Assembly: GCA_038245655.1 (NCBI GenBank)
Contig: JBBRSE010000018.1
Coordinates: 743-64,742, forward strand
Source of the DNA: Mycobacteriales bacterium
Lineage (GTDB): Bacteria > Actinomycetota > Actinomycetes > Frankiales > Frankiaceae
DNA length: 64,000 nucleotides
Reading direction: 5' to 3'
Positions within the stretch are counted from its first letter, which is position 1. Every line of letters starts with the position of its first letter. Under the pieces are notes generated by a model. The model ran no database searches. It worked only from the letters and a program-made list of their open reading frames with translations, and was not told where the DNA came from. Made by a program: the position numbers and the translations under genes. Of this stretch, positions 6,501-53,522 are shown one piece after another.

Positions 6501-7104
6501 TGCGCTTCTCGATGCCGATGCCGTGTTGCATCAACTCGACGTAAAAATTTCCGCGACCGAAGATCTCGGCGTATTCAGCGGCCGTCGCCTTGGCGAGCGC
6601 GTAATCACCGCGCTCGAGGGACTGGCTGACCTCACCGCCGGGGCATCCGGTGGTGCCGATGATGCCGCCGGCGTAGCGCGACAGCAGCTCGCGGTCCATC
6701 CGTGGCTTGTAGTAGTACCCCTCGAGGCTCGCGAGGCTGGACAGCTTGATCAGGTTGGCGTAGCCCCGCGGATCGGCTGCCCAAAGGGTCATGTGGCTGT
6801 ATTTGTCGGTCTTGGCATTGCCGCCGTCGGGCAACCGCTTGTCGAAGCGGGAACCGGGAGCGATGTAGGCCTCGGTGCCGATGATCGGCTTGATCCCGGC
6901 CCGGGTGGCCTGGCCGGCGAAGTCGAACGCGCCGTAGAGATTGCCATGGTCGGTCATCGCGAGCGCCGGCATGCCAAGCTGCTCGCATCCCTCGAACAGG
7001 TCTTTCAGCCGGGCCGCGCCGTCGAGCATCGAATACTCGGTGTGGACGTGGAGATGGACGAACGAATCGTCCCGCGTGGTCCTCGCGGGCCCCTCGCTCG
7101 TCAT
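3568..7104 (-). CDS. dnaE: DNA polymerase III alpha subunit (replicative DnaE1)
   Basis: PHP-domain start FVHLHVHTEYSMLDGA and full-length Pol IIIa architecture. I prefer ATG at 7104, preceded by AAGGCGG, over the ORF-track start at 7131. Confidence 0.97.
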   Translation of the reverse strand: MTSEGPARTTRDDSFVHLHVHTEYSMLDGAARLKDLFEGCEQLGMPALAMTDHGNLYGAFDFAGQATRAGIKPIIGTEAYIAPGSRFDKRLPDGGNAKTDKYSHMTLWAADPRGYANLIKLSSLASLEGYYYKPRMDRELLSRYAGGIIGTTGCPGGEVSQSLERGDYALAKATAAEYAEIFGRGNFYVELMQHGIGIEKRTFPQLVQIARELDLPLVATNDLHYTKQADSQAHEVLLCVQTGATLADPARFKFEANEFYLKSPAEMRQTFSELPEACDNTLLIAERIEPPSFAPKQLLPQFPCPEGETEETWFAKEVARGVADRYPGGATERQQAQVDYEVGVILQMGFPAYFLVVADLVRYAKAAGIRVGPGRGSAAGSMVSYVLGITELDPLVHGLIFERFLNPDRISMPDIDMDFDERRRTDMIRYATERYGDDKVAQIITYGTIKAKAAIKDSSRVLGYPYAMGDKITKAFPPAVMGREMNLSDCFEPTSKRYGEAGELRAMAASEPDVAKVLETARGLEGLKRQVGVHAAGVVMCRDPLTDHVPVWRRDADGAIITQFDMGAVESLGLLKMDFLGLRNLTVLDDCLAHIESNRGETIVLETLTLDDPEAYKLLGRGDTLGVFQLDGGPMRSLLRSMKPTSFDDISALIALYRPGPMGANAHNDYADRKNGRKPVEPIHPELAESLADILDETHGLIVYQEQVMAIAQRVAGYTLGAADLLRRAMGKKKREILDKEYVPFSDGMKGRGFGAAAIKTLWDILVPFSDYAFNKAHSAGYGLVSYWTAFLKANYPAEYMAALLTSVRDDKDKTAIYLQECRRMGLKVLPPDVNDSDRDFTPRGTDIRFGLGAIRNVGANVVDSLVRTRKAKGRFADFADFLRKVEPVACNKRTVESLIKAGAFDSLGHPRRGLVQIHAEVIDACLEVKRAEAAGQFSLFGSLGTEAPEISGQDADAALETTIPNGEWDKKLLLAYEREMLGLYVSDHPLLGVEHVLAAGSDATVADLAESCDDGAIVTVGGIVAGIVRKVTKTGNPWAVIQLEDLDGGVETLFFPQTYAAVSHQLIEDEVVLVKARVDKREDVPRLIAMELTVPDLTQGPRGPLTVSLQAARCVPDLVSRLKGVLSTHPGTTEVRLQLLGTARVTTLRLDDGLRVSVSTSLVADLKELLGAGCVSG

Positions 7105-7171
7105 GCCGCAACCCGCCTTTCCACCAAACATCCACCAGGATTCGACGCCTCAGCGCAAGGTTCAGGTTTAG

Positions 7172-38673: not shown

Positions 38674-39753
38674 GTGGTTGACCCGTTGTCCATGGCGGCG
38701 TCCCCAGGGGGTTTCGCTCAGCGGCCCCATGGGGATTGGCCGCACACGGCTCGGGGTCGCGGCGTCGCCGTGAATGACGATCTCGAGCCCGACGTCGAGC
38801 GGGTGGGCGAGATCGGCGACCAGTTGCTGGCCGCCATCGAGACGGTGATCGACGGCAAGGCTGCGGTCATACGTACCGCGCTCGTCGTCCTTTTCTCCGA
38901 GGGCCACCTGCTGATCGAAGACGTTCCGGGCGTCGGCAAGACGATGCTCGCCAAGACGCTGGCCGCTGCGATGTCGGGCAGCGTGCGCCGTATCCAGTTC
39001 ACGCCTGACCTACTCCCCAGCGATGTGACAGGCGTCAGCGTGTTCGAGCCGGGCACCCGCACGTTCGAGTTCCGGCCGGGTGCGGTCTTCGCCAATGTCG
39101 TCATCGGTGACGAGATCAACCGCGCCAGCCCGAAAACCCAGTCAGCCCTGCTGGAGTGCATGGAGGAGCGCCAGGTCACGATTGACGGCGAGACCTACCG
39201 GCTGGATCCTCCGTTCTTCGTAGTCGCCACCCAGAACCCGGTGGAGATGGAAGGCACCTACCCGCTGCCGGAGGCGCAGCGCGACCGCTTCACCGCGCAG
39301 GTCGCGATGGGCTACCCGTCAGCCACGGCTGAGCTCGCCATGCTCGACAACCACACCAGCGGGTCGCCGCTGGATGAGCTGAAGCCGGTCACCACGACCG
39401 ACGAGATCGCCCGGCTGTCAGCGGTCGTGCGCGGCATCCATGTCGCCGACGACGTCCGCCGATACGTGGTCGATCTGGTGACCGCCACGCGCCGCCACCC
39501 GGAGCTTCGCCTCGGCGCGTCACCCCGCGCCGGCCTGCAACTGCTTCGCACGTCCCGCGCGGCGGCTGCCCTGGAAGGGAGGGCCTACGTCCTGCCGGAC
39601 GACATCCAGGCGCTCGCCGGCGCCGTGCTGTCACACCGGCTGCTGCTGACGTCGGAGGCGGCGCAGAGCCGGCGGGAACCGTTCGACATCGTCGGTGAGA
39701 TCGTCGCTCGGCTGCCGTTGCCGGCACCTTCGGTACGGCGGCGGTCGCGCTGA
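38674..39753 (+). CDS. MoxR-family AAA+ ATPase
   Basis: Walker A GVPGVGKT and Walker B VVIGDEINRA. GTG at 38674 lies 6 nt after AGGAGG. Confidence 0.9.
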   Translation: MVDPLSMAASPGGFAQRPHGDWPHTARGRGVAVNDDLEPDVERVGEIGDQLLAAIETVIDGKAAVIRTALVVLFSEGHLLIEDVPGVGKTMLAKTLAAAMSGSVRRIQFTPDLLPSDVTGVSVFEPGTRTFEFRPGAVFANVVIGDEINRASPKTQSALLECMEERQVTIDGETYRLDPPFFVVATQNPVEMEGTYPLPEAQRDRFTAQVAMGYPSATAELAMLDNHTSGSPLDELKPVTTTDEIARLSAVVRGIHVADDVRRYVVDLVTATRRHPELRLGASPRAGLQLLRTSRAAAALEGRAYVLPDDIQALAGAVLSHRLLLTSEAAQSRREPFDIVGEIVARLPLPAPSVRRRSR

Positions 39754-39839
39754 GCGGCAAGCAACCCTTACGGCGGCAGAGCAAGCTCTCGCCGCCGTCC
39801 GCCGGCGCCGCTTCGCAGCGCACGCCGCGTCACACGGTC

Positions 39840-41120
39840 ATGGCGCTGCAGGGCATGACCGCCCGCGGGAGAGCCTTCCTGGCGGCCGGCACCACGAGCG
39901 CGGCCGCCGGCGTGATCCTCGACCAGCGCGATCTGGTCCGCGTCGGGGTTCTCCTGCTCGCGCTGCCACTGACAGCCGCGGCCTTCCTGACTCGCTCGAA
40001 GTACCGGGTCGGCGCCAAGCGCCGGCTCGACCGGTCCCGGGCACCCGTCGGCAGCGTGGTGCGGGTCGAACTCGACGTCCGCAACGTCTCGCGATTCGCG
40101 AGTCCGATGCTGCTCGCGCGGGACGCTCTTCCGGCCGAGCTCGGCGCCGCTCCGGGTGAGGGCGCCCGCTTTGTCCTGCAACGCATTCCGGCCGGTCGCG
40201 AAGTGACCGTGAGCTACGCCGTGCGGCCGGTTCAGCGCGGGCGCTACACCGTGGGACCCCTGTCAGTACGGCTGGCCGACCCGTTCGGCTTCTGCCAGAT
40301 CGTGCGCACGTTCTCCGCGATCGACGGCCTCAGCGTCCTGCCCGCGATCGCCCCCCTGTCGGCTGGGCGGATGGGCGGCAAGTGGTCCGCCGGAGGCGAA
40401 ACCCAACAGCGCGGGGTCACGACGGGCGACGAGCAGGACGCGACGACCCGGCCGTACCGCTCCGGCGACGATCGACGCCGGGTCCACTGGCGCACCACCG
40501 CCCGGACGGGTGAGCTGTCGGTGCGACGGGAGGAGCAGCCGTGGCAGAGCCGGGCGACCCTGCTCGTCGACACCCGAGCGACCGCCCACAGCCCCGGACA
40601 GCCCTCCGGATCATTCGAGTTCGCCGTCCGCGCCGCCGCCTCGATCGCGGCGGCGCTGATCCGAAACGGCTACGGCTTAAGGCTCACCGACGACGTGGCG
40701 CGCATCATCGCCGACTCGCACACGTCGCCGGGAGAGGCGGGCTTCGCCGTCATGGATGCGCTCTGCGAGCTGGAACGCGGCGAGAACGAGACCCTGCTGC
40801 CGGTCGCCAATCGGCTCAGTGACCATTCGCAGGGCCGCGGCGCCATCGTGGCTGTTCTCGGCCGGCTGTGGCCGGGCGACGCCACCGCGCTGGCCCGGCC
40901 TTCGAACAGCGGCGTTCGCCGGCTGGCGCTGCTGGTCGACGCGGACGCCTGGACGCCGGGCCGCAACCACCCCGTCAGGACGAAAGCGGCTGAGCAACGC
41001 GACGTGTTGCAGCGGGCGGGATGGTCGGTGGCTGTCGCCCACCCGCAGTCCTCCATCGAGACGCTCTGGCGCGAGCTCAACACTCCCGAGCAGATGGACA
41101 CCCGCAGGTGGGTCGGATGA
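39840..41120 (+). CDS. DUF58-domain protein (VWA-like partner of MoxR)
   Basis: 426 aa: N-terminal TM pair followed by a DUF58 core (YRSGDDRRRVHWRTTAR). Confidence 0.8.
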   Translation: MALQGMTARGRAFLAAGTTSAAAGVILDQRDLVRVGVLLLALPLTAAAFLTRSKYRVGAKRRLDRSRAPVGSVVRVELDVRNVSRFASPMLLARDALPAELGAAPGEGARFVLQRIPAGREVTVSYAVRPVQRGRYTVGPLSVRLADPFGFCQIVRTFSAIDGLSVLPAIAPLSAGRMGGKWSAGGETQQRGVTTGDEQDATTRPYRSGDDRRRVHWRTTARTGELSVRREEQPWQSRATLLVDTRATAHSPGQPSGSFEFAVRAAASIAAALIRNGYGLRLTDDVARIIADSHTSPGEAGFAVMDALCELERGENETLLPVANRLSDHSQGRGAIVAVLGRLWPGDATALARPSNSGVRRLALLVDADAWTPGRNHPVRTKAAEQRDVLQRAGWSVAVAHPQSSIETLWRELNTPEQMDTRRWVG

Positions 41121-43579
41121 ACACGACCACTCTCGACCGTCCGGAGCCGCGCGGCGCGGGACGCCCGGGCGCCCCGTCGCCGTGGTGGCCTCCGCCGCCC
41201 CCGAAGCCGCCGCGCGGCATGTCGGCCGAGCTGCGCATTCCGATGCCCGTGCTGGCCACGCTGGCGACGCTGTGCACCACGCTGTGCCTCGGCAATCTTT
41301 TCGAGGGCATCCGCTGGTGGTTCTACCCGTCGCTGGGGGCGATCGTGGTGGCGGCGATCGTGGGCGAGCTCGGCCGTCGCGTGCGGGCGCCGCTTGCGGT
41401 GATGCCGCTGCTCTATGCCGTCGCCGGATGGCTGTACGTCATACCGGTCGCCGCGGGCGACTCGGGACGGCGGCCAGGCGTCGGACTGTGGCCTACCGGC
41501 GACACCTTCACTGCCTTGCGCGATCTGGCCAACTCCGGCTCCACCGACATCCGCGCCCTGACCGTCCCCGTCCCCGATCGGCCCGGATTCCTTTTCCTCA
41601 CCGTGGCCGGGGTCTTCGTCATCGCCGCCCTCGTCGATGCGATCGCGGTAGGGCTCGACCGGCCGGCGGCCGCTGGTCTCCCGCTGCTGGCGCTGCTAGC
41701 GGTCCCGGCTGCAGTCGTCGAGCGCGGGGTCGGCCTGCTGGCTTTCGTGGCAGCCTGCCTGTCGTACCTGGCGATGCTGCTCTCCTCAGGCCGGCATGGG
41801 TTCGTACGCTGGGCGCGCGTCCCGGCGGGAGCCGCGGCCGGGATCCGCCAGGCAACGGGCGCGACGGGGCGGCGCATCGGTGCCATCGCCGTCGTCGCGG
41901 CGCTCTTCCTGCCGGTACTCATCCCGCGCTATACCGGCGTCGGACGTCACCGCTCCAGCGGCAGTGGAGGCGGATCGGCCACCGTCATCGAGCCGGTCGT
42001 CACCCTCGCGCAGCAGCTGCACAGCGACTCCATACAACCTCTGCTGACGGTGCACACGCAGACCCCCGAGTACCTGCGGCTGGCCTCGCTCGAGCATTTC
42101 GACGGGCAACGCTTCACGCTCGGTTCGCTGTCGGCCGGACGCGACGCCAGGGTGTCTCACGGATTGCCGGCTCCTGCCAAGGGCAGCACCGCCGAAGTGA
42201 AGGCGACGATCGACGTCGAAAACGTCCTGCACCAGCGTTATCTGCCGACCCCGTACCAGGCGACGCAGGTGGCGATCGATGGTGACTGGCGGCTGTCCGG
42301 GCGAACGTTCACCATCTTTTCCGCCCAGAACGACACTTCCGGCGCCCACTACTCGGTGACCTCGCAAGTCGCGACGCCGACCGCGGAGGCACTACGGGCC
42401 CAGACCCCGACCGGCTCGCTGGCGCCCGAGATTGACGCCGACATCAACCTGCCGAACGACCTGCCGGTGGAGATCTCCGAGCTCGCGGCGCGGCTGACGG
42501 CCAGCTACCCGACCGAATACGACAAAGCCGCCGCCATCCAGGCCTACCTGCGCGGCCCGCTCTTCACGTACGACCTGAAGGGTGCCCCGATCGGGAACAA
42601 CGCGCTGGCGGACTTCCTGCTGCGTGACCATCGGGGTTACTGCGAGCAGTTCGCGGGAGCGATGGTCGTGCTCGCCCGGGAGGCGGGGATTCCGGCCCGC
42701 GTGGCCGTGGGGTTCACCCCTGGTACCCGCCAGGCGGATGGCAGCTGGCTGATCACCAACCATGACGCCCACTCCTGGCCCGAGATCTGGTTCCCGCAAG
42801 CCGGCTGGATCCGCTTCGAACCCACCAAGCGCGACGACAGCACGACTGCGCCGGACTACACACAGAACCCGCAGGGCGGCGCGCCGGCGCCGATCCAGTC
42901 CGCCGACCCGAAGTCACAGGCGACCGCGGCACCGAGCGGCAAGGCGAGCCAGCCGGCAGCCGGCCCATCGAGTGGCCTGACGAGCGGCGCAGGTTCCTCC
43001 GGCGGCGGGCTTTCCTTCCCCGCGACCCAGGTGCTGGGTTGGAGCGGCGGCGCGGCCGTCGGCGTCGTCCTGCTGCTCGCACCGGCCCGGCTGCGGCGGC
43101 GTCGGCGGCGGCGGCGCCTTGACGACAGTTCGGCCGGCTGGCAGCGCGACGCGTGGCGGGAGATCGTCGACACGGCCGTGGATCTTGGTGTTGACGTGCC
43201 GGCGACGCTCTCCCCTCGCCGGACCGTGCAGCGATGGTCACGCCTTTCGACCGGCGAGCGCGTCATGCCCGACGCCGCGAGCAAAGTACTGGCCGAGGTC
43301 GCTCACGCCGAGGAACGCTTCCGGTATGCCCCGCAATCGAGCGCCGGCGCCGATCCGGCGGTCGCCTGGACCGCGCAGGAGGTTCGGGACGCCCTGCATT
43401 CCTGGGAACACTCCCGCGAATCCCGGGTGCGCCTGCGCGCCCTGCTGGCGCCGCGGTCCATGCGCCCGGCGGCTAGGACCGTCCTGGCGGGCGAATCGGG
43501 CCCGGGTGCAGACAGCAAGCCGGGCTCGCGCAGGCTTGCGCTGCGGCGGCTCCGGTCAAGGCCAGCAGGTCAAAGCTGA
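41117..43579 (+). CDS. Transglutaminase-domain (TgpA-like) polytopic membrane protein
   Basis: ATG at 41117 in an ATGA overlap with the DUF58 stop. About 6 N-terminal TM helices. Cys-His-Asp core GYCEQFAGAM ... NHDAHSWPEIWF, then a C-terminal TM and tail. Confidence 0.85.
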   Translation: MNTTTLDRPEPRGAGRPGAPSPWWPPPPPKPPRGMSAELRIPMPVLATLATLCTTLCLGNLFEGIRWWFYPSLGAIVVAAIVGELGRRVRAPLAVMPLLYAVAGWLYVIPVAAGDSGRRPGVGLWPTGDTFTALRDLANSGSTDIRALTVPVPDRPGFLFLTVAGVFVIAALVDAIAVGLDRPAAAGLPLLALLAVPAAVVERGVGLLAFVAACLSYLAMLLSSGRHGFVRWARVPAGAAAGIRQATGATGRRIGAIAVVAALFLPVLIPRYTGVGRHRSSGSGGGSATVIEPVVTLAQQLHSDSIQPLLTVHTQTPEYLRLASLEHFDGQRFTLGSLSAGRDARVSHGLPAPAKGSTAEVKATIDVENVLHQRYLPTPYQATQVAIDGDWRLSGRTFTIFSAQNDTSGAHYSVTSQVATPTAEALRAQTPTGSLAPEIDADINLPNDLPVEISELAARLTASYPTEYDKAAAIQAYLRGPLFTYDLKGAPIGNNALADFLLRDHRGYCEQFAGAMVVLAREAGIPARVAVGFTPGTRQADGSWLITNHDAHSWPEIWFPQAGWIRFEPTKRDDSTTAPDYTQNPQGGAPAPIQSADPKSQATAAPSGKASQPAAGPSSGLTSGAGSSGGGLSFPATQVLGWSGGAAVGVVLLLAPARLRRRRRRRRLDDSSAGWQRDAWREIVDTAVDLGVDVPATLSPRRTVQRWSRLSTGERVMPDAASKVLAEVAHAEERFRYAPQSSAGADPAVAWTAQEVRDALHSWEHSRESRVRLRALLAPRSMRPAARTVLAGESGPGADSKPGSRRLALRRLRSRPAGQS

Positions 43580-43645
43580 CCGAGCGGATCCTTTGCGCGT
43601 GACCCTGCAAGATCCGATTCTGGCGGATCCGAAAGCCGGACTCGG

Positions 43646-44044
43646 TTAGCGGTCGCGGTCGTCCCAGCGCCGCTGCCAACGCTCCTGCGCGCGCTGGGAG
43701 AGCGAGCGACGGGCCTTCGGCGACCGCGATCGGCGGGAGCGGGACTCGAGATCGGGCCGGCCGCCGAGCCGACGAAGATCGCCGGAGCCCCGCAGCGCCG
43801 CGAGCAACATGACGACAAAACCCAACAAACCAAGCACAATGCTGGCCGCACCGGAATTGATCACTACCGCCGCGACGAGCACACCGAGCCCGACGACGAA
43901 CAGGGCGGTGGAGCGCCAGAGCCGCCGAATCGCATACGAACGTGGGTTTATCGAGCGGACGGTGCTGACAAGTTTGGGGTCGTCGGCGTAGAGATCGCGC
44001 TCGATTTGCTCGAGCAGACGCTGCTCGTGCTCTGAGAGCGGCAT
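43646..44044 (-). CDS. DUF3040-domain membrane protein
   Basis: MPLSEHEQRLLEQIERDLYADDPKL followed by two TM helices. ATG at 44044 lies after GGGAGGAG. Confidence 0.75.
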   Translation of the reverse strand: MPLSEHEQRLLEQIERDLYADDPKLVSTVRSINPRSYAIRRLWRSTALFVVGLGVLVAAVVINSGAASIVLGLLGFVVMLLAALRGSGDLRRLGGRPDLESRSRRSRSPKARRSLSQRAQERWQRRWDDRDR

Positions 44045-44223
44045 CCGCGCTCCTCCCCACACCAACATTCCAGACCCCGATGGGGGTCTTCTCAGAATAG
44101 AACCTCGGCAGGATCGACGATAGTCGCAAGCTCCCGGCGTGCGCCAAATTTGGCAAACCTGTGAGTACTTCGCGGTGAACACGCGCTCTCATCGAACCCG
44201 CAATGTGGTGATCACCGCAAAAA

Positions 44224-45483
44224 TCATTGGGTGGGCAGTGAACGGCCAGGGGGATCGACCAGGGACGCCGGGCGTACCGATCCCGAACCGAATCGGGCGG
44301 ACGCCCGGTCGACCGCCCGATCCGCCTCCCGCCATCCGGACTCCCGCTCCCCCAGCGAAAGCTGGCGGGTCACCCGTCCGGAGCTGACGAGCGACTCCGC
44401 ACGCACCCCCACCAAACGCAGGCGGGCGCGTTGGAGCCCGAGCTTGCGGAACAGTTCGCGGGCAACTTCGTAAATCTCGCGCCCGCTATCCGTGGCCTGC
44501 GGCAGGGTGCGCGCTCGGGTGATGGTGGTGAAATCGGCGAAGCGCACCTTCAGGCTGATGGTGCGCGAGGCGTATCCCTGCTCGCGCAGCCGGGCCGCGG
44601 TGCGCTCAGCCAGCCGCAGGACCTCGCGCAGCACGATCTGCGGGTCATCGACGTCACGGGCAAAAGTCTCTTCCGCACCAACGCTTTTCTCCGGCTCGCT
44701 CGCAATGACTTTGCGGTCATCGCGTCCCCACGCAAGCGCTGTCAGGTGGGAGCCGGCCGCGGCTCCGAGCACCCGCTGCAGCGTATGGACCGGCACTTGC
44801 GCGATGTCACCGACCGTCTGCAAGCCAAGCCGATGCAACGACTCCGCAGTGCGCTCACCCACCCCCCACAAGGCCTCAACGGGCAGCGGATGCAGGAAGG
44901 ACACCAGGCCATCCGCCGGGACGACGAGCAGCCCGTCCGGCTTGCCGCGGGCCGAGGCCAGCTTGGCCACAAACTTTGTGGACGCGACCCCCACCGTGCA
45001 GGTGAGCTGCTGCTCGTCCCAGACGCGGGCGCGTATCCACTCGGCAATCTCGCGCGGACGGCCAAGCCGCCGCTCAGCTCCCCGGACGTCGAGGAATGCC
45101 TCGTCCAGCGACAACGGCTCGACGAGTGGGGTGACCGACCGGAAGATCTCCATGATTCCGGCGGAGGCCTCGCTGTAACGACGAAACGTCGGCGGCAGCA
45201 CGATCGCCTGCGGGCACAATCGGCGGGCCCGCATCATGGGCATCGCGCTGCGCACCCCGAACTCGCGCGCCTCATACGTCGCGGACAGGACGACGCCGCG
45301 GGTGCCGCCGCCGCCGACAATGACCGGCTGCCCCTGTAGCTCCGGACGGGTACGCAGCTCCACCGACGCGTAGAACGCGTCCATATCGACATGCAGGATC
45401 GGGCAACCACTATCCGACTGCACGCGTGCAGCGAGACCGGGGAAACCGCCTGATCCGCCGCTCATGACGGCTTCCGCCCACAC
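44224..45483 (-). CDS. dinB: DNA polymerase IV (Y-family, catalytic residues intact)
   Basis: Motifs ILHVDMDAFYASVE and SLDEAFLD plus a little-finger domain. The start could be 45483 or ATG 45465. Confidence 0.92.
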   Translation of the reverse strand: MWAEAVMSGGSGGFPGLAARVQSDSGCPILHVDMDAFYASVELRTRPELQGQPVIVGGGGTRGVVLSATYEAREFGVRSAMPMMRARRLCPQAIVLPPTFRRYSEASAGIMEIFRSVTPLVEPLSLDEAFLDVRGAERRLGRPREIAEWIRARVWDEQQLTCTVGVASTKFVAKLASARGKPDGLLVVPADGLVSFLHPLPVEALWGVGERTAESLHRLGLQTVGDIAQVPVHTLQRVLGAAAGSHLTALAWGRDDRKVIASEPEKSVGAEETFARDVDDPQIVLREVLRLAERTAARLREQGYASRTISLKVRFADFTTITRARTLPQATDSGREIYEVARELFRKLGLQRARLRLVGVRAESLVSSGRVTRQLSLGERESGWREADRAVDRASARFGSGSVRPASLVDPPGRSLPTQ

Positions 45484-45525
45484 CGGGCAGCGGGCTGCAC
45501 CCGTGCAGGAGCCGATGGCGCGTCC

Positions 45526-46308
45526 CTACGCGTCGGGCTTGCGGGCCAGCACGTGCAGCCGGGTGGCCATCGCGCGGTAGACCGGCAGCCGGGCCACCGA
45601 CTCTTCCAGGCGCGCAAGGACCTCTCGGGCGTGGGGCTCGATGTCGAGCACGGCTCCGGGGACGAAATCAGAGAACACCCGATCTCCGTGAATCCCCACC
45701 ACGGACAGTCCCGCGGCCTCCGTGAACTGCACCAGCTCTTCCAGATCGAACCGGCGATGCAGGCGATCGGTGCCCGCCGCGGCCTGATCGAAAAGAACTC
45801 GCTCGGCGGCGTCGAGACGCCCGGCAAGGATTCGGCCGAGGACCGCGGCTGACCGGTTGGCCGCAAGCACGCTGAGCAGGCCGCCCGGCCGCAACGCAAT
45901 TCCGGCGGCCACGATGCCGGCGGCTGGATCATCAGCGACTTCGAGCACGTCATGGCACAACAGGACGTCGACCTGCTGTGGGTCGATGACATCACCGAGG
46001 GTGTCGAGATCGCCCTGGCGACCGCTGACGTGTTCAGCGACTCCGGCCTCCGCAGCCCGGCGCTCGAGGGAAGCCAACGAGTCAGGGCTCGGATCGACGA
46101 CGATGACCCGGTGGCCGAGCTGCGCCAAGGGAACCGCAAACCCGCCGCTGCCACCACCGGCGTCGACGACGACGAGCCTGCCACCACCTCGCTCGCGGCT
46201 CTCGGGTCGCCCAGCAAGCTCCACGAGCGCGCGCCGCAGGTCTTCCCAGACGACGCTGCTGCGCGACGCCGGCCAAGAGCTGGACTGGCTCGACTGACTG
46301 GTAGGCAC
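45526..46308 (-). CDS. Class I SAM-dependent methyltransferase
   Basis: Motif I VVDAGGGSGGFAVPLA, then VVDPS. GTG at 46308 is chosen to avoid overlap with the dnaE2 3' end. Confidence 0.8.
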   Translation of the reverse strand: MPTSQSSQSSSWPASRSSVVWEDLRRALVELAGRPESRERGGGRLVVVDAGGGSGGFAVPLAQLGHRVIVVDPSPDSLASLERRAAEAGVAEHVSGRQGDLDTLGDVIDPQQVDVLLCHDVLEVADDPAAGIVAAGIALRPGGLLSVLAANRSAAVLGRILAGRLDAAERVLFDQAAAGTDRLHRRFDLEELVQFTEAAGLSVVGIHGDRVFSDFVPGAVLDIEPHAREVLARLEESVARLPVYRAMATRLHVLARKPDA

Positions 46309-46453
46309 GCCTGCCTTTCCCGGGACCGCTGGGCATCGGATTCGTGGGTGCCGGCAGCTACACCGGCACTCACCTGGAAGGGTAATCGCCCACCGGCACA
46401 CGGGCGGGTCTGCGACAGCGCCCGCCGGCGGCCGGCCAACACGAATCCGCTGC

Positions 46454-49400
46454 TCATCCGCCCGAGCTCCCCGGGCTGGAATGCCACAACCGGCGGGGAG
46501 CACTGCGAGCGTCCCCGCCTGACGGCTTGATGTCGGCGTAGGGAGACAGGCGAAAACCGGTGGCGTACTGCTGCGCCCGTGCCCCGGCCGGTGGATTGAC
46601 CATCACCGGCCGGCTGGACCGGCTGGCCGCCGCACCCTGAACCGCGAGCTCACTGACTCTGACCGGATCGGCCATGATCCGCTCAACCGCCGCTGCTCCT
46701 CCTGCCTCCCAGGCATCTCGCAGAGCGGGCAGCTCCCAGCAACCGGTCGCCCGCAGCGATACCCCGCGCGGGCCGGTACGGCGTACGAACCCCCGAATAA
46801 CCAGCAGCCACGAATGAAAGACGGTCGATGCGTACCCCGCTTGGGCATCTTCGAAGAAGGTGGCATCGAGCGGTCCCGTCGCGTCATCGAGGGTCACGAA
46901 CACCACCCGCCGCCCCGAGCGAACCGGCGGCGTCTGGGTGGCCACCTTCACTCCAGCGATCAAGATTTCCTGGCGGCTACGGCACCGCACGAGATCGCGG
47001 GCGCGGGTGATACCGAACGCCTTCATGAAGGGCTCGTAGAAGTCCACCACATGGCGAGTGACATCCAGACCCAGCACATCGAGCTCAGCACGCACCTGCT
47101 CGGCGCTGGTGAGCTCAGGGAGTCCGGACGCCCGGACAGCGGATGGATCGTCACCGAGATCGAGGGCGAGCTGCACCGGATCGTGCTCCTGGGCCCCCGC
47201 CGACCCCAGATCCCCGGGCGCCCCGGTCAAACCGGGCAGCCCGGTGCGCGCCGCGCGCGACTGCCGCGCCGCCCTTTCAACGACCCCATCGGCGGCTCGC
47301 TCGGTGCCACCGGCCGCGCCGCCGCGGCTCGAACCCCGCCCGCGCCGGGCGCTGCCCCGGGCCACCGCCCGGCTCCACTGATCAAGCTCAGCGACCTGCA
47401 GAAGCAGATCGCGCCGGGTGATACGACCCCGGCGACGCACCGGTGCCGCCAGCCCGATCCCATAGAGAGAATCGAACCCGCCCGCGAGCACAAGCCGCTC
47501 GACGATGGGTCTGGACACCGCCGCCCGGTGCCAGAAGTCGGACAAGGAGCCGTAGGGCCGGCCGGTGATGATCCCGGTGACTTCAGCCGCATTGATCCCT
47601 TTGACCTCGGACAACGCCATGCGGATGCCGTAATCACGGGCATCGGGAAGCCGCGGGTCAAGCGGTGGATGGCGAGCGGGGGCGTCCAGCACGGCGGGTG
47701 GGGGCTCGGAAAACGACCCGATGCGCTCGACGCGGTAGACGCTGTCGGATTGATTGACGTCGAGTCCCAGCACGGCAATGCCGAATTGGCGGGCATCGTC
47801 GAGGATGAGCCGTTTGGGATACATCCCCGGATCGTGGGTGAGCACCCCGGCGAGGAACGCTGCGGTGTGGTGGGCCTTCAACCAGGCGGATTGGTAGGTG
47901 GGAAGCGCGAAGGCCGCGGCATGCGCCTTGCAGAACCCGAACGACCCGAAGGCTTTCAGCACTTCCCAGACCCGCTCGATGGTCGCGAGGTCGTAGCCGG
48001 CGCGCAGGGCCGCCGGCACGAAGGCGGCCCTGACCTCCGGCTGGAGAACCGGATCACCGAGCGCACGCCTCGCCTCATCAGCTTCGGCCAGCGAAACTTT
48101 GGTCATCTGAGCCACGATTTGCAGGACCTGCTCGTGGAAAACGACGACCCCTCCGGTGTCAGCCAGGTAGGGCTCAAGGTCAGCGTGGATAGAGGTGGCC
48201 TCCCGCCATCCTTGGCGAGCCTCCAAGAAGGGGGTCACCATGTCGCTCTTCACCGGGCCGGGCCGAAACAGCGAAATGTCGATGATGAGATCGTCGAACG
48301 TCTCTGGACCGAACTTTCCCACCAGCTCCCGCTGGCCGGGCGACTCAATCTGAAAGCAGCCGAGAGTGCGGGTGGACTGCACCAGCGCGAAGGTGGCCGG
48401 GTCGGCGCGATCGATGTTGTCGATATCAACGTCGACCTCATCGACCCGTCGCACTTCGGCAATGGCGTGTGAGATCGCTGACTGCATGCGGATCCCGAGC
48501 AGATCGAGCTTGAGCAGCCCGAGATCTTCGACGTCGTCCTTGTCGAACTGGCTCATCGGAAAACCCAGGTAACTCGCCTCTACCGGGGTGCGATCCAGCA
48601 AGGTGGCATCGGACAGGAGCACGCCGCAGGGATGCAGCGCGATGTGACGAGGCAGCCCATCGAGGCGCTCGACGAGGCGCAGCATCAGGTCAAGCCGCTC
48701 GCTGGACAGCCCGCTGCTATGCAACTCCGGCAGATCACGCATCGCTGCGCGCACCTGGCTGGCCCGGATGTGGGGAAACGCTTTGGCCACCGCGTCGATC
48801 TCACCCGGCGGCAACCCGAGCGCCCCACCGACATCGCGGATGGCGTGGCGCGCCCGGTAGGTGTCCATCATCGCGACGCAGGCACAGCGCTCGCCTCCGT
48901 AACGGGCGAGCACCTGCTCATAAACCTCGGTACGCCTGGCCGACTCGACGTCGATGTCGACATCGGGCAACTGGTGGCGCAGCGGTGACAGGAACCGCTC
49001 CATCAGCAGGCCGTAGCGCAGGGGATCGACGTCAGAAACACCGGTGAGATAGGTGACCAGGCTGCCGGCGCCTGAGCCACGAGCCGCGCAGCGGACCCCC
49101 ATCCCGCGGATCAGGTCGACAACATCGGCCACGGTAAGGAAATAGCTCGGATAGCCCAATGCTCGAATCACCTCGAGCTCGGAGTCGAGTCGCTCGTTCA
49201 CCTCCCGGGACAGCTGCATGCCGCGCCGGCCAAGGCCGGCTTCGCAGCGAGCACGCAGCACATGATCAGCGTCATGGGCATTGGCTCCGGCCGGAATGTC
49301 ACCAGTGATCGCCAGCTCCGGAAAGTGGATCTCCCCGATACCGAGATCCGCCTTTGGATCCAGCACGCAGCGCTCGGCGATCTGGCGGGAGCGGATGAGA

Positions 49401-50284
49401 AGGCTCCGCCCACCGTCGGTGAATCCGGCAGCGCGCGCGACTTCCTCGGCAACATCTGCCATTTCCTTGCCCGACTTCAGATACCCCTCTGCATTGGCCC
49501 GGCCGACGTGACGCGGATCCAACGCCACCAGCAACCGGGAGGCATCGAGCACATCGGCGACGGGCGCATCACCTCGGTCGGCATATCTCACCGCATTGGT
49601 AAGGACTACCGGCACGCCCGCATCGAGCCCGAAAGCCGCCCACCGGCCCGCCTTCGCCAGCTCCCCGCGACCCCGGTGATGCACCACCTCGATCTGGAGC
49701 TCGCCCGGCTCCGGGAAGGCCGCGCGCCAGCGAGCCACATGTGCACCGGCGAGTGCCTCGCGGCGCGCGATCAAAGCCCTCCCGGCTTCGGACTGCGGGC
49801 CGAGCAATGCGATAAGGGCACCGCCTCCGGACCGGGCCACCTGCGCGTATTCAGCGATCAGCTCGATGCTGGTGACTGGGGTGCCGCGATCCCCGGCTAA
49901 ATGCGTAGCCGTCACCAACCGGCAGAGTGCCCCCCACCCGGCGCGCCCCGATGCCAGCAGGGTGATCCTCGGCAACCCCGCATCGACGAACGCCCCGCCA
50001 CGCGCCGGCGACGACGACGATCGAGAGGCGGTCTGCCGCGTGTCAGAACGGCGCACTGACGCCAGTGGAGCAACAGCAAGGTCGGTGCCGAGCAGCGGAC
50101 GGATGCCCTCCCGCTGGCAGGCCTTGGCGAAGCGCACCGCACCGTAAACCCCGTCCCGGTCGGTGAGCGCCAGTGCATCCATCCCATGCTCTGCAGCCTT
50201 GGCCGCGAGAAACTGGGGATGCGATGCACCGTGACGCAGGGAATAGCCGGATGCCACATGGAGGTGAACGAAGTAATCGGACAT
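46454..50284 (-). CDS. dnaE2: Error-prone DNA polymerase DnaE2 (ImuC)
   Basis: N-terminal PHP FVHLHVASGYSLRHGAS. No tau/epsilon-binding tail. C-terminus ...SPYADIKPSGG...RRLWHSSPGSSGG, as I recall for DnaE2. Confidence 0.95.
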   Translation of the reverse strand: MSDYFVHLHVASGYSLRHGASHPQFLAAKAAEHGMDALALTDRDGVYGAVRFAKACQREGIRPLLGTDLAVAPLASVRRSDTRQTASRSSSSPARGGAFVDAGLPRITLLASGRAGWGALCRLVTATHLAGDRGTPVTSIELIAEYAQVARSGGGALIALLGPQSEAGRALIARREALAGAHVARWRAAFPEPGELQIEVVHHRGRGELAKAGRWAAFGLDAGVPVVLTNAVRYADRGDAPVADVLDASRLLVALDPRHVGRANAEGYLKSGKEMADVAEEVARAAGFTDGGRSLLIRSRQIAERCVLDPKADLGIGEIHFPELAITGDIPAGANAHDADHVLRARCEAGLGRRGMQLSREVNERLDSELEVIRALGYPSYFLTVADVVDLIRGMGVRCAARGSGAGSLVTYLTGVSDVDPLRYGLLMERFLSPLRHQLPDVDIDVESARRTEVYEQVLARYGGERCACVAMMDTYRARHAIRDVGGALGLPPGEIDAVAKAFPHIRASQVRAAMRDLPELHSSGLSSERLDLMLRLVERLDGLPRHIALHPCGVLLSDATLLDRTPVEASYLGFPMSQFDKDDVEDLGLLKLDLLGIRMQSAISHAIAEVRRVDEVDVDIDNIDRADPATFALVQSTRTLGCFQIESPGQRELVGKFGPETFDDLIIDISLFRPGPVKSDMVTPFLEARQGWREATSIHADLEPYLADTGGVVVFHEQVLQIVAQMTKVSLAEADEARRALGDPVLQPEVRAAFVPAALRAGYDLATIERVWEVLKAFGSFGFCKAHAAAFALPTYQSAWLKAHHTAAFLAGVLTHDPGMYPKRLILDDARQFGIAVLGLDVNQSDSVYRVERIGSFSEPPPAVLDAPARHPPLDPRLPDARDYGIRMALSEVKGINAAEVTGIITGRPYGSLSDFWHRAAVSRPIVERLVLAGGFDSLYGIGLAAPVRRRGRITRRDLLLQVAELDQWSRAVARGSARRGRGSSRGGAAGGTERAADGVVERAARQSRAARTGLPGLTGAPGDLGSAGAQEHDPVQLALDLGDDPSAVRASGLPELTSAEQVRAELDVLGLDVTRHVVDFYEPFMKAFGITRARDLVRCRSRQEILIAGVKVATQTPPVRSGRRVVFVTLDDATGPLDATFFEDAQAGYASTVFHSWLLVIRGFVRRTGPRGVSLRATGCWELPALRDAWEAGGAAAVERIMADPVRVSELAVQGAAASRSSRPVMVNPPAGARAQQYATGFRLSPYADIKPSGGDARSAPRRLWHSSPGSSGG

Positions 50285-50299
50285 GCCCTGCGATTCGAC

Positions 50300-50728
50300 C
50301 TATGCCGACAGCGACAGCGACGGCTGCTGGGCCAGGCCCAGCAAGGCGAGAACTGCTAGCAGGAAACGCTCTGAATCCCGGACGAGATCATCTGCTTCCC
50401 GCTGACTGACCACCGGTCGGCCCGCCTCAGCAGCAGCGCGCTTGGGGGCACCGGCGGCGAAGAACGCCGCCCATTCCCTGAGCTCCGGAGCCACCTCGGT
50501 CAGGAGTCGCCAGGCACTGACCGGCCGACCCCGACGATTGTGGGGTCGGGCTCGGGCAGCTAGCACCGCCGCCGCAGCACGCAATGCGGCGAGGTGAGCA
50601 AGGGCGTAACGCTCCCCAGCCACCTGAGCCCCCTCGGCGTCAGCCAGCCCTTGCCGAGAGGCCGTCAGCAAACCGCCGACGGCTCGCGAAAGCACCCGCA
50701 CCTGCGCCTGGCTCGAAGAAACGGCCAT
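50300..50728 (-). CDS. Small all-helical HEPN-like protein (recalled as the SAV_6107-family HEPN type)
   Basis: 142 aa with an R-x4-H motif in GERYALAHLAALRAAAAVLAAR (R40, H45). TGATG 1-nt overlap with the upstream gene; 15 nt to dnaE2. Confidence 0.65.
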   Translation of the reverse strand: MAVSSSQAQVRVLSRAVGGLLTASRQGLADAEGAQVAGERYALAHLAALRAAAAVLAARARPHNRRGRPVSAWRLLTEVAPELREWAAFFAAGAPKRAAAEAGRPVVSQREADDLVRDSERFLLAVLALLGLAQQPSLSLSA

Positions 50729-51180
50729 CAGTCATGCACCTCCACAAGCTTCCAGCTACCGCGAGACCAGTCGAAACAAAGGTCGTAGACCCCGAGTGAC
50801 GAGGACCGGCCGGAGCCGGCTTCCACCCGCCAGAACTCCTGCTCACCGTCATCAATGGAGGCCGGGCCGATGGACGCTCCGACATCAGGCGCCGGCTCAC
50901 CCCAAGCGCGCTGGGCCCACTTGGGTGACGCGGGAATCGGATCGAGGACAAGGTCGGCTTCCGAACGAGCCACCTCACCGCCGGCAGCCAGCGCCATCGC
51001 CGCGCTGGAAGCCCACCACTGGCCGGACTCGAACCAATGCTCGAGCACGTCTCGGACGACATAGAGCCGCGAGCGCCATAGGAACTGCTCCGGAACATCG
51101 TCACGACGCCGAACTTCGATCGGCTCCGCATGACGCCTACCCACGACCGCCTCCTCCCAGCCCGCCGGCACGACGGGCAA
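50728..51180 (-). CDS. DUF6504-like protein with ImuB-C-terminus-like motifs
   Basis: 150 aa with motif string PIEV..., FLWRSRLYVV, SGQWW, EFWRVEA, GVYDL. Start is TTG 51180 (or GTG 51171). First gene after the SOS promoter. Confidence 0.65.
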   Translation of the reverse strand: MPVVPAGWEEAVVGRRHAEPIEVRRRDDVPEQFLWRSRLYVVRDVLEHWFESGQWWASSAAMALAAGGEVARSEADLVLDPIPASPKWAQRAWGEPAPDVGASIGPASIDDGEQEFWRVEAGSGRSSSLGVYDLCFDWSRGSWKLVEVHD

Positions 51181-51323
51181 TGACCCAGGACACGTGCATC
51201 TACGTGCACGACTCGCCGGGGGAAGGCGACGGTTGCCGGCAGGCGATGTCGCTTCCCCACGACACCGCCTGCCGAACGATCCGGCTTGCCTCGTACGCTG
51301 GATGGGACGCGCAAGCTGGTGTA

Positions 51324-51355
51324 CCGAACATACGTTCGAAACGCCAGGGCGTCAA
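51324..51355 (-). promoter_or_regulatory. LexA (SOS) box overlapping a sigma-A-type promoter
   Basis: The minus strand reads TTGACG-17nt-TATGTT (-35 at 51355-51350, -10 at 51332-51327). The palindrome CGAAC-GTAT-GTTCG (51325-51339) covers the -10. This is a near-match to actinobacterial TCGAAC-N4-GTTCGA. Confidence 0.7.
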
Positions 51356-51397
51356 GCTTTCCGATCGGCGTCCCGACGTCCGCCTAAGGGGCAGCCC

Positions 51398-51580
51398 TCA
51401 GGTGCGCTCGGGCGGCGGCCCGACTCCGTCGCCGCGCAGCACGAACCGCCGGTTGCACGACTGGCACCACCAGCCGCCGCGCTCCCCTACCGGCTCGAGA
51501 TCTTCCTCGCCGCAGTAGGGGCAGTAGAACGGCACCGAACGCTCTCCCCCGGGGGAGGTCGCGGGTGGGCCTTCAGTCAC
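51398..51580 (-). CDS. 60-aa zinc-ribbon microprotein
   Basis: CPYC-x15-CQSC motif. GTG at 51580 lies 7 nt after the sulfite reductase stop. Confidence 0.6.
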   Translation of the reverse strand: MTEGPPATSPGGERSVPFYCPYCGEEDLEPVGERGGWWCQSCNRRFVLRGDGVGPPPERT

Positions 51581-51587
51581 CAGGGGC

Positions 51588-53228
51588 CTACTGCAGCGCC
51601 GACTCGTCAGCGCGCCGGACCCAGGAAGCGAAGCTCTCGCCCTCGGTGCGACCCGCCTGGAACGAGCGCAGGATCCGCTCCACGAAGTCCGGAAGCTCTT
51701 GCGAGGTCACCTTGAGCCCGCGCACCTTGCGTCCGAGCGCCGCCTCGACGCCGAGCGAGCCGCCGAGATGAATCTGGAAGCCCTCTTCGCCGCCGATCAG
51801 GGAACCCTTCAAACCGATGTCGGCGACCTGGAAGCGGGTGCAGGCATTCGGGCAGCCGTTGACGTTGATGCCGATCGGCTCGTCAAAGTTGGGCATGCGG
51901 CGCTCGAGCTCATCGATCAGGTCGCTCGCGCGGGCCTTGGTCTCGACGATGGCGAGCTTGCAGAACTCCAGCCCGGTGCAGGCCATGGTCGAACGGCGGA
52001 ACGACGAGGGGTTCACCGCCAGGTCGAGAGCGGCCAGTTCGGCGGTAAGGCCGTCGACGTCACGAACGCCCAGGATGATCAGCTTCTGCTCGGTCGTGGT
52101 GCGTATCTCGCCGGCGCCGAACCGGTCGGCAAGGTCTGCGACCTGAGCCAGCAGGGTGCCGGGCACCCGGCCGGCGCGCGGCGCGAAACCGACGGCAAAC
52201 GTGCCGTCACGCAGCTCCGTCACGCCGACATGATCGCGACGCTTCGAACGCGGAGTGGCCGGGGCGGGACCGTCCTGCAGCGGGTAGCCGAGGTACTCCT
52301 TCTCGAGCACTTCACGGAAACGCTCCGGACCCCAGTCCGAGACCAGGAACTTAAGGCGCGCCCGGGTACGCGAGCGGCGATATCCGTAGTCCCTGAAGAT
52401 CGACGTGACGCCCGCCCAAACCTCGGGCAGCTGCTCCGGGGTGACGAAGACGCCGAGCCGCACCGCGAGCTTGGGGTTGGTCGACAGGCCGCCGCCGACC
52501 CAGAGGTCGAAGCCGGGAGTGCCCGCGGGTCCGTCGGGCACGCCGACGAAAGAAACGTCGTTGATCTCGTGAATCGTGCAGTGGTCCGGGCATCCGGAGA
52601 TCGCCGTCTTGAATTTGCGAGGCAGGTTGGAGAAGTCGGGCGAGCCGATGTAACGGCTGACAACCTCCGCGATCGCATCGGTGCCGTCGATGACCTCATT
52701 GGCATCGACCCCGGCCAGCGGGCAGCCGAGGATCACGCGCGGGGTGTCCCCGCACGCTTCCGTCGTCGAGAGGCCGGCCCCTTCGAGCCGCTCCCAGATC
52801 GCCGGCATGTCTTCGATACGGATCCAGTGCAGCTGCACGTTCTGACGATCGGTGACATCGGCGGTGTCGCGGCCGTAATCGGTGCTCACCTGCGCGATGA
52901 CCCGCAGCTGCTCGGACGTGAGACGCCCGCCATCGATACGCACCCGCAGCATGAAGAACTTGTCGTCCAGCTCCGCCGGCTCGAGCGAACCGGTCAGGCC
53001 ACCACCGATGCCGGGCTTGCGCTGGGTATAGAGCCCCCACCAGCGCATACGGCCACGCAGATCGTTCGGTTCGATCGAGTCGAACCCGTTTTGCGCGTAG
53101 ACCGTCTCGATCCGCTGCCGGACGTTAAGCCCGTCATCTTCTTTTTTGAACTGCTCATTCGTATTGAGCGGCTCCCGATCGCCGAGGGCCCACTGGCCCT
53201 GCCCGGTGGAGCGCTGAGGCGCGGGCAT
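51588..53228 (-). CDS. sirA: Ferredoxin-dependent sulfite reductase (nitrite/sulfite reductase family)
   Basis: Siroheme/4Fe-4S Cys clusters ACTGLEFCKLA and NGCPNACTRFQ. ATG at 53228 lies 9 nt after GGAAGGA. Confidence 0.93.
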   Translation of the reverse strand: MPAPQRSTGQGQWALGDREPLNTNEQFKKEDDGLNVRQRIETVYAQNGFDSIEPNDLRGRMRWWGLYTQRKPGIGGGLTGSLEPAELDDKFFMLRVRIDGGRLTSEQLRVIAQVSTDYGRDTADVTDRQNVQLHWIRIEDMPAIWERLEGAGLSTTEACGDTPRVILGCPLAGVDANEVIDGTDAIAEVVSRYIGSPDFSNLPRKFKTAISGCPDHCTIHEINDVSFVGVPDGPAGTPGFDLWVGGGLSTNPKLAVRLGVFVTPEQLPEVWAGVTSIFRDYGYRRSRTRARLKFLVSDWGPERFREVLEKEYLGYPLQDGPAPATPRSKRRDHVGVTELRDGTFAVGFAPRAGRVPGTLLAQVADLADRFGAGEIRTTTEQKLIILGVRDVDGLTAELAALDLAVNPSSFRRSTMACTGLEFCKLAIVETKARASDLIDELERRMPNFDEPIGINVNGCPNACTRFQVADIGLKGSLIGGEEGFQIHLGGSLGVEAALGRKVRGLKVTSQELPDFVERILRSFQAGRTEGESFASWVRRADESALQ

Positions 53229-53522
53229 GCGCACGGATCCTTCCGCTGGAACAAGCACATACCGGACGCCTCAAGTCTCGCACAGTGTCGCGGGAAGCTA
53301 GCTCCCGCGAACGCGAAGGGTCGGCGAACGCATTCACCGGGGGCCCGCGGGAACATCTGGGCTCACCTCGTTGTAGTGTTCAAACGTGTTCTTGATGCTC
53401 GTTGCGCGGCTGCATGTTGATCTGCAGCGTTGCTCGAGCGCGGTCTGTCCGCAGCGGTAGTCGGCGCGTCAGCTTTCTGATGCGTCTTTCTCCCGCCCGA
53501 CTGACCTCGATGAAGGACGCTT

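Follow-up and report, generated by a model that had tools for sequence, protein, structure and literature searches.

A conserved HEPN_SAV_6107 gene in a putative LexA-controlled operon for translesion synthesis in a Frankiales-related actinobacterium

We analyzed a 64,000-nt stretch of DNA (hereafter, the window) from contig JBBRSE010000018.1 of a Mycobacteriales bacterium (assembly GCA_038245655.1); the host of the operon described here is an actinobacterium related to Frankiales. On the minus strand of the window, genes for a DUF6504 protein, a HEPN_SAV_6107 protein, DnaE2, an S-adenosylmethionine (SAM)-dependent methyltransferase, DNA polymerase IV (Pol IV), and a DUF3040/SCO2097-family protein follow one another in this order. 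An earlier reading of this DNA (the original prediction) had likened the first of these proteins to the C-terminal domain of ImuB (ImuB-C) and the second to HEPN ribonucleases. The ImuB-C assignment is correct but describes a kind of protein that is already known; what seems to be new is the conserved HEPN component, and the locus as a whole is no categorical novelty. Taking both parts together, we consider it reasonably probable that the region from 51355 to approximately 44224 forms a translesion-synthesis operon under LexA repression, of the DnaE2B-[ImuB-C]-PolY(-RecA) type already published (PolY, Y-family polymerase), and that its HEPN protein is a partner or regulator, without catalytic activity, of the ImuB-C/polymerase assembly.

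In the mechanism that we propose, LexA would leave a box overlapping the -10 element of the promoter after DNA damage, and the genes would be transcribed together. The 138-aa DUF6504 protein, a putative free-standing ImuB-C β-barrel, would most likely dock on DnaE2 by analogy with the canonical mutasome; published AlphaFold models place ImuB-C on the PHP domain of DnaE2 (PMC12926913). It would couple DnaE2 to the Pol IV encoded downstream, which is predicted to bind the clamp and RecA. The 142-aa HEPN protein, translationally coupled to ImuB-C and lacking the canonical Rx4-6H motif, would most likely serve this assembly without catalysis of its own. Three roles may be inferred for it, and we rank the non-catalytic partner or regulator first, an independent SOS unit with the methyltransferase second, and an atypical RNase or toxin third.

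The HEPN gene in its locus and across genomes

The HEPN gene (50300..50728, minus strand) encodes a protein that matches Pfam family PF18726 (HEPN_SAV_6107) with 119 bits against a cut-off of 27.2 (E = 1e-34). The gene upstream of it (50728..51144, minus strand) encodes the DUF6504 protein, which matches PF20114 with 61.6 bits against a cut-off of 24.2 (E = 9e-17; residues 15–150 of a 150-aa open reading frame, or ORF, that contains it). Because both matches exceed the curated cut-offs and homologues of the two proteins number in the hundreds to thousands, neither can be taken for a chance ORF. The two genes have base 50728 in common, in a TGATG stop/start overlap that bears out the translational coupling proposed for them earlier, and only 15 nt separate the HEPN stop codon from the start of dnaE2.

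Upstream of the DUF6504 gene is a 217-nt intergenic region that contains both a promoter and a LexA (SOS) box. The promoter, TTGACG-17-TATGTT (51327..51355, minus strand), is sigma-70-like and is the sole promoter-like site in the interval 43400–51600. The box, TCGAACgtatGTTCGg (51324..51339, read on the minus strand), has one mismatch to the actinobacterial consensus that we used, TCGAAC-N4-GTTCGA, and the -10 element lies within it. The SOS link drawn in the original prediction is supported by this box in the operon's own promoter, and the box is kept at orthologous loci. Only one other site in the 64 kb has as few mismatches: a palindrome at 51029–51044 (TCGAACCAATGCTCGA, one mismatch) within the DUF6504 gene itself, where the codons spell LEHWFE. 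This internal palindrome may be a mere consequence of the conserved peptide.

How constant is this arrangement in other genomes? Using the HEPN alignment as the query, we recovered 80 genome loci, a sample with a heavy bias toward Streptomyces, and mapped their genes by hidden Markov model (HMM). In 29 of the 80, the HEPN gene or the DUF6504-HEPN pair is preceded by a LexA box that has one mismatch or none; approximately 0.6 would be expected at the background frequency of 0.0054 per kb. These 29 include almost all of the non-Streptomyces loci sampled. In Frankia CcI3, the box is perfect and is located 40 nt upstream of HEPN; a 245-aa ORF upstream of this HEPN gene was considered as a divergent DUF6504 and rejected (hhalign probability 0.1%). 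Among the remaining loci, nearly all of which are from Streptomyces, about half keep a box with two mismatches. The paper on the LexA regulon of S. venezuelae does not list the HEPN orthologue.

Several architectures were found. DUF6504-HEPN-DnaE2-methyltransferase-PolY, the order in the window, recurs in L001, L003, L008, L038, L055, and L169, and with fragmented genes in L167 and L168. DnaE2 is missing from otherwise similar loci (DUF6504-HEPN-methyltransferase-PolY; L049, L065, L066, and L072), and others have only DUF6504-HEPN-methyltransferase (L170, L043, and L058). Pseudokineococcus and Nocardioides species are the sources of L003 and L065. HEPN-PolY occurs in Propionibacteriaceae and in similar loci from metagenome-assembled genomes (L040, L050, L052, L054, and L060). 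The most frequent architecture, HEPN-methyltransferase-DUF3040, comprises 51 loci, nearly all from Streptomyces, and is also that of Frankia. The methyltransferase gene follows HEPN in most loci. In Pilimelia columellifera (L062, 9995–18307), HEPN stands behind a perfect LexA box and is followed by imuA'-imuB-dnaE2 and then by methyltransferase-PolY-DUF3040; ImuA' was identified by NCBIfam (163 bits). A preliminary view of Dactylosporangium (L048) gives a similar order, HEPN-PolY-like-DnaE. A DUF6504-HEPN fusion (P0374; L168, 8001–8750) was set aside as most likely a frameshift artefact; the neighboring dnaE2 and polY are fragmented in that metagenome assembly.

Seen from the side of DUF6504, all five of the distant DUF6504 genes sampled have HEPN directly downstream, and the single exception that we found to this adjacency is Nonomuraea gerenzanensis (L086, 5276–9639). 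Its DUF6504 protein has 241 aa, including an N-terminal extension of 150 residues, and its gene abuts that of DnaE2 with the boundary base in common; within 15 kb there is neither a HEPN gene nor a LexA box. HEPN_SAV_6107 is the most constant gene of the SOS locus. The accessible literature contains no paper that combines HEPN with DnaE2 and none that mentions DUF6504, and the regular occurrence of HEPN in operons of this kind appears to be unreported.

These comparisons also bear on another explanation, namely that HEPN and the methyltransferase constitute a LexA-controlled unit of their own beside the dcw cluster, concerned for example with RNA/tRNA modification or the cell cycle, that has no direct role in translesion synthesis. 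Polymerase and ImuB-C genes would then have been inserted repeatedly around this pair because the locus offers an SOS promoter. The commonest architecture, which has no polymerase gene, speaks for such a history, as do L170, the HEPN-methyltransferase pair of Frankia with its perfect LexA box, the highly variable polymerase content around HEPN, and the DUF6504-DnaE2 pair of Nonomuraea without HEPN. However, DUF6504 and DnaE2 do not form one block beside HEPN; they flank it, at the TGATG overlap on one side and the 15-nt gap on the other. Further, each of the five distant DUF6504 genes sampled is followed directly by HEPN, including the one with neither polymerase (L170), and in other families HEPN heads operons of the HEPN-PolY and HEPN-imuA'-imuB-dnaE2 kinds. 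When genes stay adjacent in this way across orders, a functional link is usually the reason. We regard a separate unit as unlikely.

The HEPN protein and its Rx4H residues

In the AlphaFold2 (AF2) model of the HEPN protein (predicted local distance difference test, 86), helices are found at residues 15–33, 37–59, 81–101, and 109–129, with a short one at 72–79. Together they make a four-helix bundle in which, as is typical of HEPN, an insert separates helices 2 and 3. A Foldseek search of the PDB with this model gave HEPN proteins as its top matches (2hsb, 1wol, and 3o10), with template-modeling scores of approximately 0.6 and E values of only 0.1. Sequence searches of the PDB with the DUF6504 and HEPN family profiles returned nothing relevant.

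The original prediction had taken R40-x4-H45 (ERYALAH) for the HEPN ribonuclease signature. Both residues are indeed present in the 142-aa ORF (codons 50609–50611 for R40 and 50594–50596 for H45), and their conservation across the family is high, at approximately 95%: R40 is found in 76 of the 80 loci and H45 in 77. H45 is replaced by Tyr in two loci (L043 and L058) and R40 by Gln in three Streptomyces loci, whereas W73, E85, W86, F90, R97, R110, A112, D113, D114, L115, R117, and F122 are invariant. In HEPN proteins, the catalytic Rx4-6H motif occupies the end of helix 3 or the helix 3–4 loop, and the table of the HEPN survey lists SAV_6107, which it places in the HEPN-M group, among families without a conserved Rx4-6H (PMC3710099). 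In the AF2 model, R40-x4-H45 is found N-terminally in helix 2, and the canonical site reads R97-AAAEAG, with R97 kept and no His. Because of this helix-2 position and the missing His, we conclude that the Rx4H is not, by position, the HEPN signature, and RNase activity is unsupported, if conceivable. By our estimate, one Rx4H arising by chance in an Arg-rich protein of 142 aa would not be surprising.

Nevertheless, the conservation of R40 and H45 raises another question: might the active site have been relocated? An SOS-induced ribonuclease could be envisaged in which R40 and H45 from helix 2 combine with R97 to bring about growth arrest or RNA remodeling, with the DUF6504 protein as an antitoxin-like partner or a tether. 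A small upstream gene with an overlapping stop and start does resemble a toxin-antitoxin layout. The best structural match, 2hsb, is AF_0298, and an alternative His has been proposed to offset the lost canonical one in the AF_0298 family (PMC3710099). The neighboring methyltransferase is distantly like CmoM, a tRNA methyltransferase. There is also a precedent: in the SOS operon dinB-yafN-yafO-yafP of E. coli, a LexA-controlled translesion polymerase, Pol IV, is co-transcribed with small accessory genes that include the RNase-type toxin YafO and a modifying enzyme. The protein families are unrelated in the two cases (YafO and YafP vs. HEPN and a SAM methyltransferase), and the toxicity of HEPN here is hypothetical.

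Against a ribonuclease stand the loss of the canonical motif in a family catalogued as lacking it and the substitutions at R40 and H45 in a protein with twelve other positions invariant. In most loci, HEPN occurs without DUF6504, which would be lethal if DUF6504 neutralized a toxin. Unlike mobile toxin-antitoxin modules, the HEPN gene is single-copy, syntenic, and vertically inherited, with a fixed position by the methyltransferase-DUF3040-dcw region, and PADLOC gave no significant match or defense-system assignment. The same features separate it from the HEPN-MNT toxin-antitoxin systems (HEPN-M clade, e.g., DUF86), with which it shares the four-helix fold and the helix 2/3 insert: here the gene is chromosomal, it has no nucleotidyltransferase partner, and the canonical Rx4-6H is lost. 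An active, relocated RNase is, in our estimation, quite improbable.

The role that we prefer is that of a non-catalytic partner or regulator for ImuB-C and the polymerases, but several observations weigh against it. The HEPN-methyltransferase-DUF3040 loci of Streptomyces and Frankia have no polymerase or ImuB-C gene nearby, and the function of HEPN is therefore not strictly mutasome-dependent. In Nonomuraea, DUF6504 abuts DnaE2 without HEPN. Pilimelia has HEPN together with ImuA'-ImuB-DnaE2; HEPN is therefore no simple substitute for ImuA. In the window, a 145-nt gap lies between dnaE2 and the methyltransferase gene, such that a single transcript of all five operon genes can only be presumed. 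Finally, R40 and H45 lie at the same end of the modeled bundle as R97 and are conserved in about 95% of members, such that a relocated active site is conceivable.

A wider proposal, which we put forward tentatively, is that HEPN_SAV_6107 is a core component, unrecognized and under LexA control, of the mutagenic polymerase systems of actinobacteria, be it as a subunit or regulator or as an atypical RNase. It would serve whichever error-prone set the lineage possesses (DnaE2, Pol IV, or ImuA'-ImuB-DnaE2). A subunit or regulator would bind ImuB-C and the polymerases; an RNase with a relocated His/Arg site would connect translesion synthesis with RNA turnover or growth arrest.

Mutation after DNA damage, and with it chromosomal drug resistance, is driven in Actinobacteria by DnaE2-based mutasomes. 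The makeup of those outside the ImuA'-ImuB-DnaE2 type has only just been catalogued; ImuB-C, PolY, and RecA have been entered, whereas HEPN_SAV_6107 has not. Should HEPN prove to be a subunit or regulator, the models now in use for these polymerase complexes would be incomplete; should it prove to be an RNase, RNA metabolism would be linked to mutagenesis. Either way, a Pfam family without an assigned function gains a context: induction by DNA damage, as predicted from the LexA box, next to error-prone polymerases.

The ImuB-C protein among known mutasomes

The DUF6504 reading frame is open from a TTG codon at 51180, and the 150-aa ORF described earlier (51180..50728) does exist. Its likelier start, however, is the GTG at 51144, which is preceded by a ribosome-binding site (GGGAGGAGG) 5 nt upstream and yields a protein of 138 aa; because of this site and because homologues have 137–142 aa (they span 92% of the 150-aa ORF), we believe that GTG 51144 is probably the real start. 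The motifs that had suggested ImuB-C (PIEV, FLWRSRLYVV, SGQWW, EFWRVEA, and GVYDL) are all present, the first of them with a spacing of PIEV-x6-P and not the PIEV-x8-P given earlier.

The Pfam DUF6504 model finds the last 75 residues of genuine ImuB proteins encoded in imuA-imuB-dnaE2 cassettes. In the 507-aa ImuB of Methylocella tundrae, it matches residues 432–504 with 30.4 bits against the cut-off of 24.2. Because the model that detects the 138-aa protein also matches a genuine ImuB C-terminus above the curated cut-off, the 138-aa protein can be identified by homology as a stand-alone ImuB-C domain. This full-length ImuB, encoded on plasmid p2 (L172, 4001–5524) within an imuA-imuB-dnaE2 cassette, carries the PGAP name "DUF6504 family protein," which masks its identity yet shows that the Pfam model covers ImuB-C. 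The ImuB of Sinorhizobium is also matched (residues 430–502, E = 1.2e-3), and those of Burkholderia and Tsukamurella have no Pfam DUF6504 match.

Profile comparisons agree with this assignment. When a broad DUF6504 alignment was compared with 69 ImuB C-termini (rhizobial, plus one from Burkholderia) using hhalign, the two aligned over 83 columns spanning both domains with a P value of 5e-6 and a probability of 86%; a reversed control was negative, at 0.5%. HMM-vs.-sequence scores of rhizobial ImuB proteins were weakly above those of shuffled controls (medians of 4.8 and -2.9 bits). A HMMER profile search covering 1.84 billion representatives yielded 998 matches; the 150 best, which were those listed, are all short stand-alone proteins, and the ImuB link is not directly visible among them.

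The predicted structure is likewise that expected of ImuB-C, which is described as mainly β, about 80–100 residues long, and endowed with a conserved C-terminal Trp and basic residues (PMC3765255). The AF2 model of the DUF6504 protein has six β-strands (residues 7–14, 17–23, 26–39, 102–110, 118–125, and 130–137) and a low-confidence insert; W131 never varies, and there is conservation of R24, R26, and R106. Foldseek found no meaningful match to this model in the PDB, in agreement with the published view of ImuB-C as a new fold. The insert (residues ~45–98, encoded at ~50851–51012; APIPASPKWAQRAWGEPAPDVGASVGP) is Pro-rich and splits the β-barrel in close relatives, where it is well conserved; more distant DUF6504 proteins lack it, as does L001, the nearest genome. 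Possibly it is a linear interaction motif confined to the clade. As a DnaE2-linked feature it was discarded, for its distribution follows the clade and not the occurrence of DnaE2.

On the stand-alone ImuB-C, the original prediction overstated its case. The definition of such proteins dates from 2013 (PMC3765255) and was extended in 2019 (PMC6511836); in actinobacteria, DnaE2B-[ImuB-C]-PolY-RecA modules (Tessaracoccus lapidicaptus) and DnaE2-[ImuB-C] modules (Arthrobacter alpinus) have been published (NAR 2026, PMC12926913). Our operon is assigned to the type of the former, and the 64-kb window contains no imuA or imuB gene. It differs in having HEPN between ImuB-C and DnaE2, and PMC12926913 mentions neither a HEPN nor a methyltransferase gene.

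The other comparisons are with the canonical ImuA'-ImuB-DnaE2 mutasome (Mycobacterium tuberculosis; imuABC in proteobacteria) and with lexA-imuB-C-polY, an operon of Geobacter sulfurreducens (PMC3765255, PMC6511836). With the canonical mutasome, our locus has in common LexA control, the mutagenic polymerase DnaE2, and an ImuB-C domain of the DnaE2-contacting kind. It departs from it in that ImuB-C is a separate 138-aa protein without a Y-family domain, ImuA' is absent from the window, and a Pol IV that is predicted to be active replaces the dead polymerase domain of ImuB; in Pilimelia, the canonical cassette itself stands behind the same HEPN gene. As in Geobacter, a small, β-rich ImuB-C would be co-transcribed with a Y-family polymerase under SOS control, and some related loci have DUF6504-HEPN-methyltransferase-PolY without DnaE2. 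Geobacter belongs to another phylum, and here lexA is no part of the operon and a HEPN gene is added.

Polymerases, methyltransferase, and neighboring genes

The dnaE2 gene (46454..50284, minus strand) encodes a second Pol III alpha of DnaE2 type. This protein of 1276 aa has PHP, DNA_pol3_alpha, finger, HHH_6, and OB domains and scores below the NCBIfam (equivalog) cut-offs for both DnaE and the error-prone form. A second, non-replicative Pol III alpha thus adjoins ImuB-C. The window carries both paralogues: a genuine replicative DnaE1 of 1187 aa is encoded at 3568–7131 (minus strand), with a score of 1495 bits to NCBIfam PRK05673 against a cut-off of 1002.

Pol IV (44224..45483, minus strand; 413–419 aa) matches Pfam IMS and IMS_C and exceeds the NCBIfam Pol IV cut-off (421 vs. 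367 bits). Its catalytic motifs, DMDAFY and SLDEAF, are intact, and the enzyme is apparently active. At its C-terminus, QLSLGE precedes AVDRASARFGSGSVRPASL, and both motifs are conserved in orthologues. By eye, QLSLGE resembles a clamp-binding motif, and the RFGSGSV segment (RFGSGSVRPASL), which is conserved in orthologues, resembles RecA-NT. The original prediction had stressed that ImuB-C exists here without the Y-family domain. The protein indeed has no such domain of its own, but the claim goes too far for the cluster, in which the Pol IV gene lies approximately 5 kb downstream.

Between the two polymerase genes is that of the class I SAM-dependent methyltransferase (45526..46308, minus strand; ~260 aa from GTG 46308), which matches Pfam Methyltransf_11/12/25. 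Its likeness to CmoM extends over the full length and is distant (NCBIfam CmoM, 96.7 bits, far below the cut-off of 366). The S. coelicolor orthologue is probably SCO2098.

The cluster ends with the syntenic gene for a DUF3040/SCO2097-family membrane protein (43646..44182, minus strand). SCO2097 is an MreB-associated actinomycete signature protein (PMC4255298), and the protein encoded here probably lies outside the repair function. On the other side of the operon, a 60-aa zinc-ribbon ORF (51398–51580, minus strand; CPYCG...CQSCN) stands directly downstream of a sulfite/nitrite reductase gene (51588–53258) and weakly matches HVO_2753-like zinc-finger proteins. Adjoining the DUF3040/SCO2097-family gene, a plus-strand cluster (38674–43579) encodes a MoxR-type AAA ATPase, a DUF58 protein, and a TgpA transglutaminase; this synteny, which continues on to mraZ and the dcw cluster, is also found in Frankia and in further loci.

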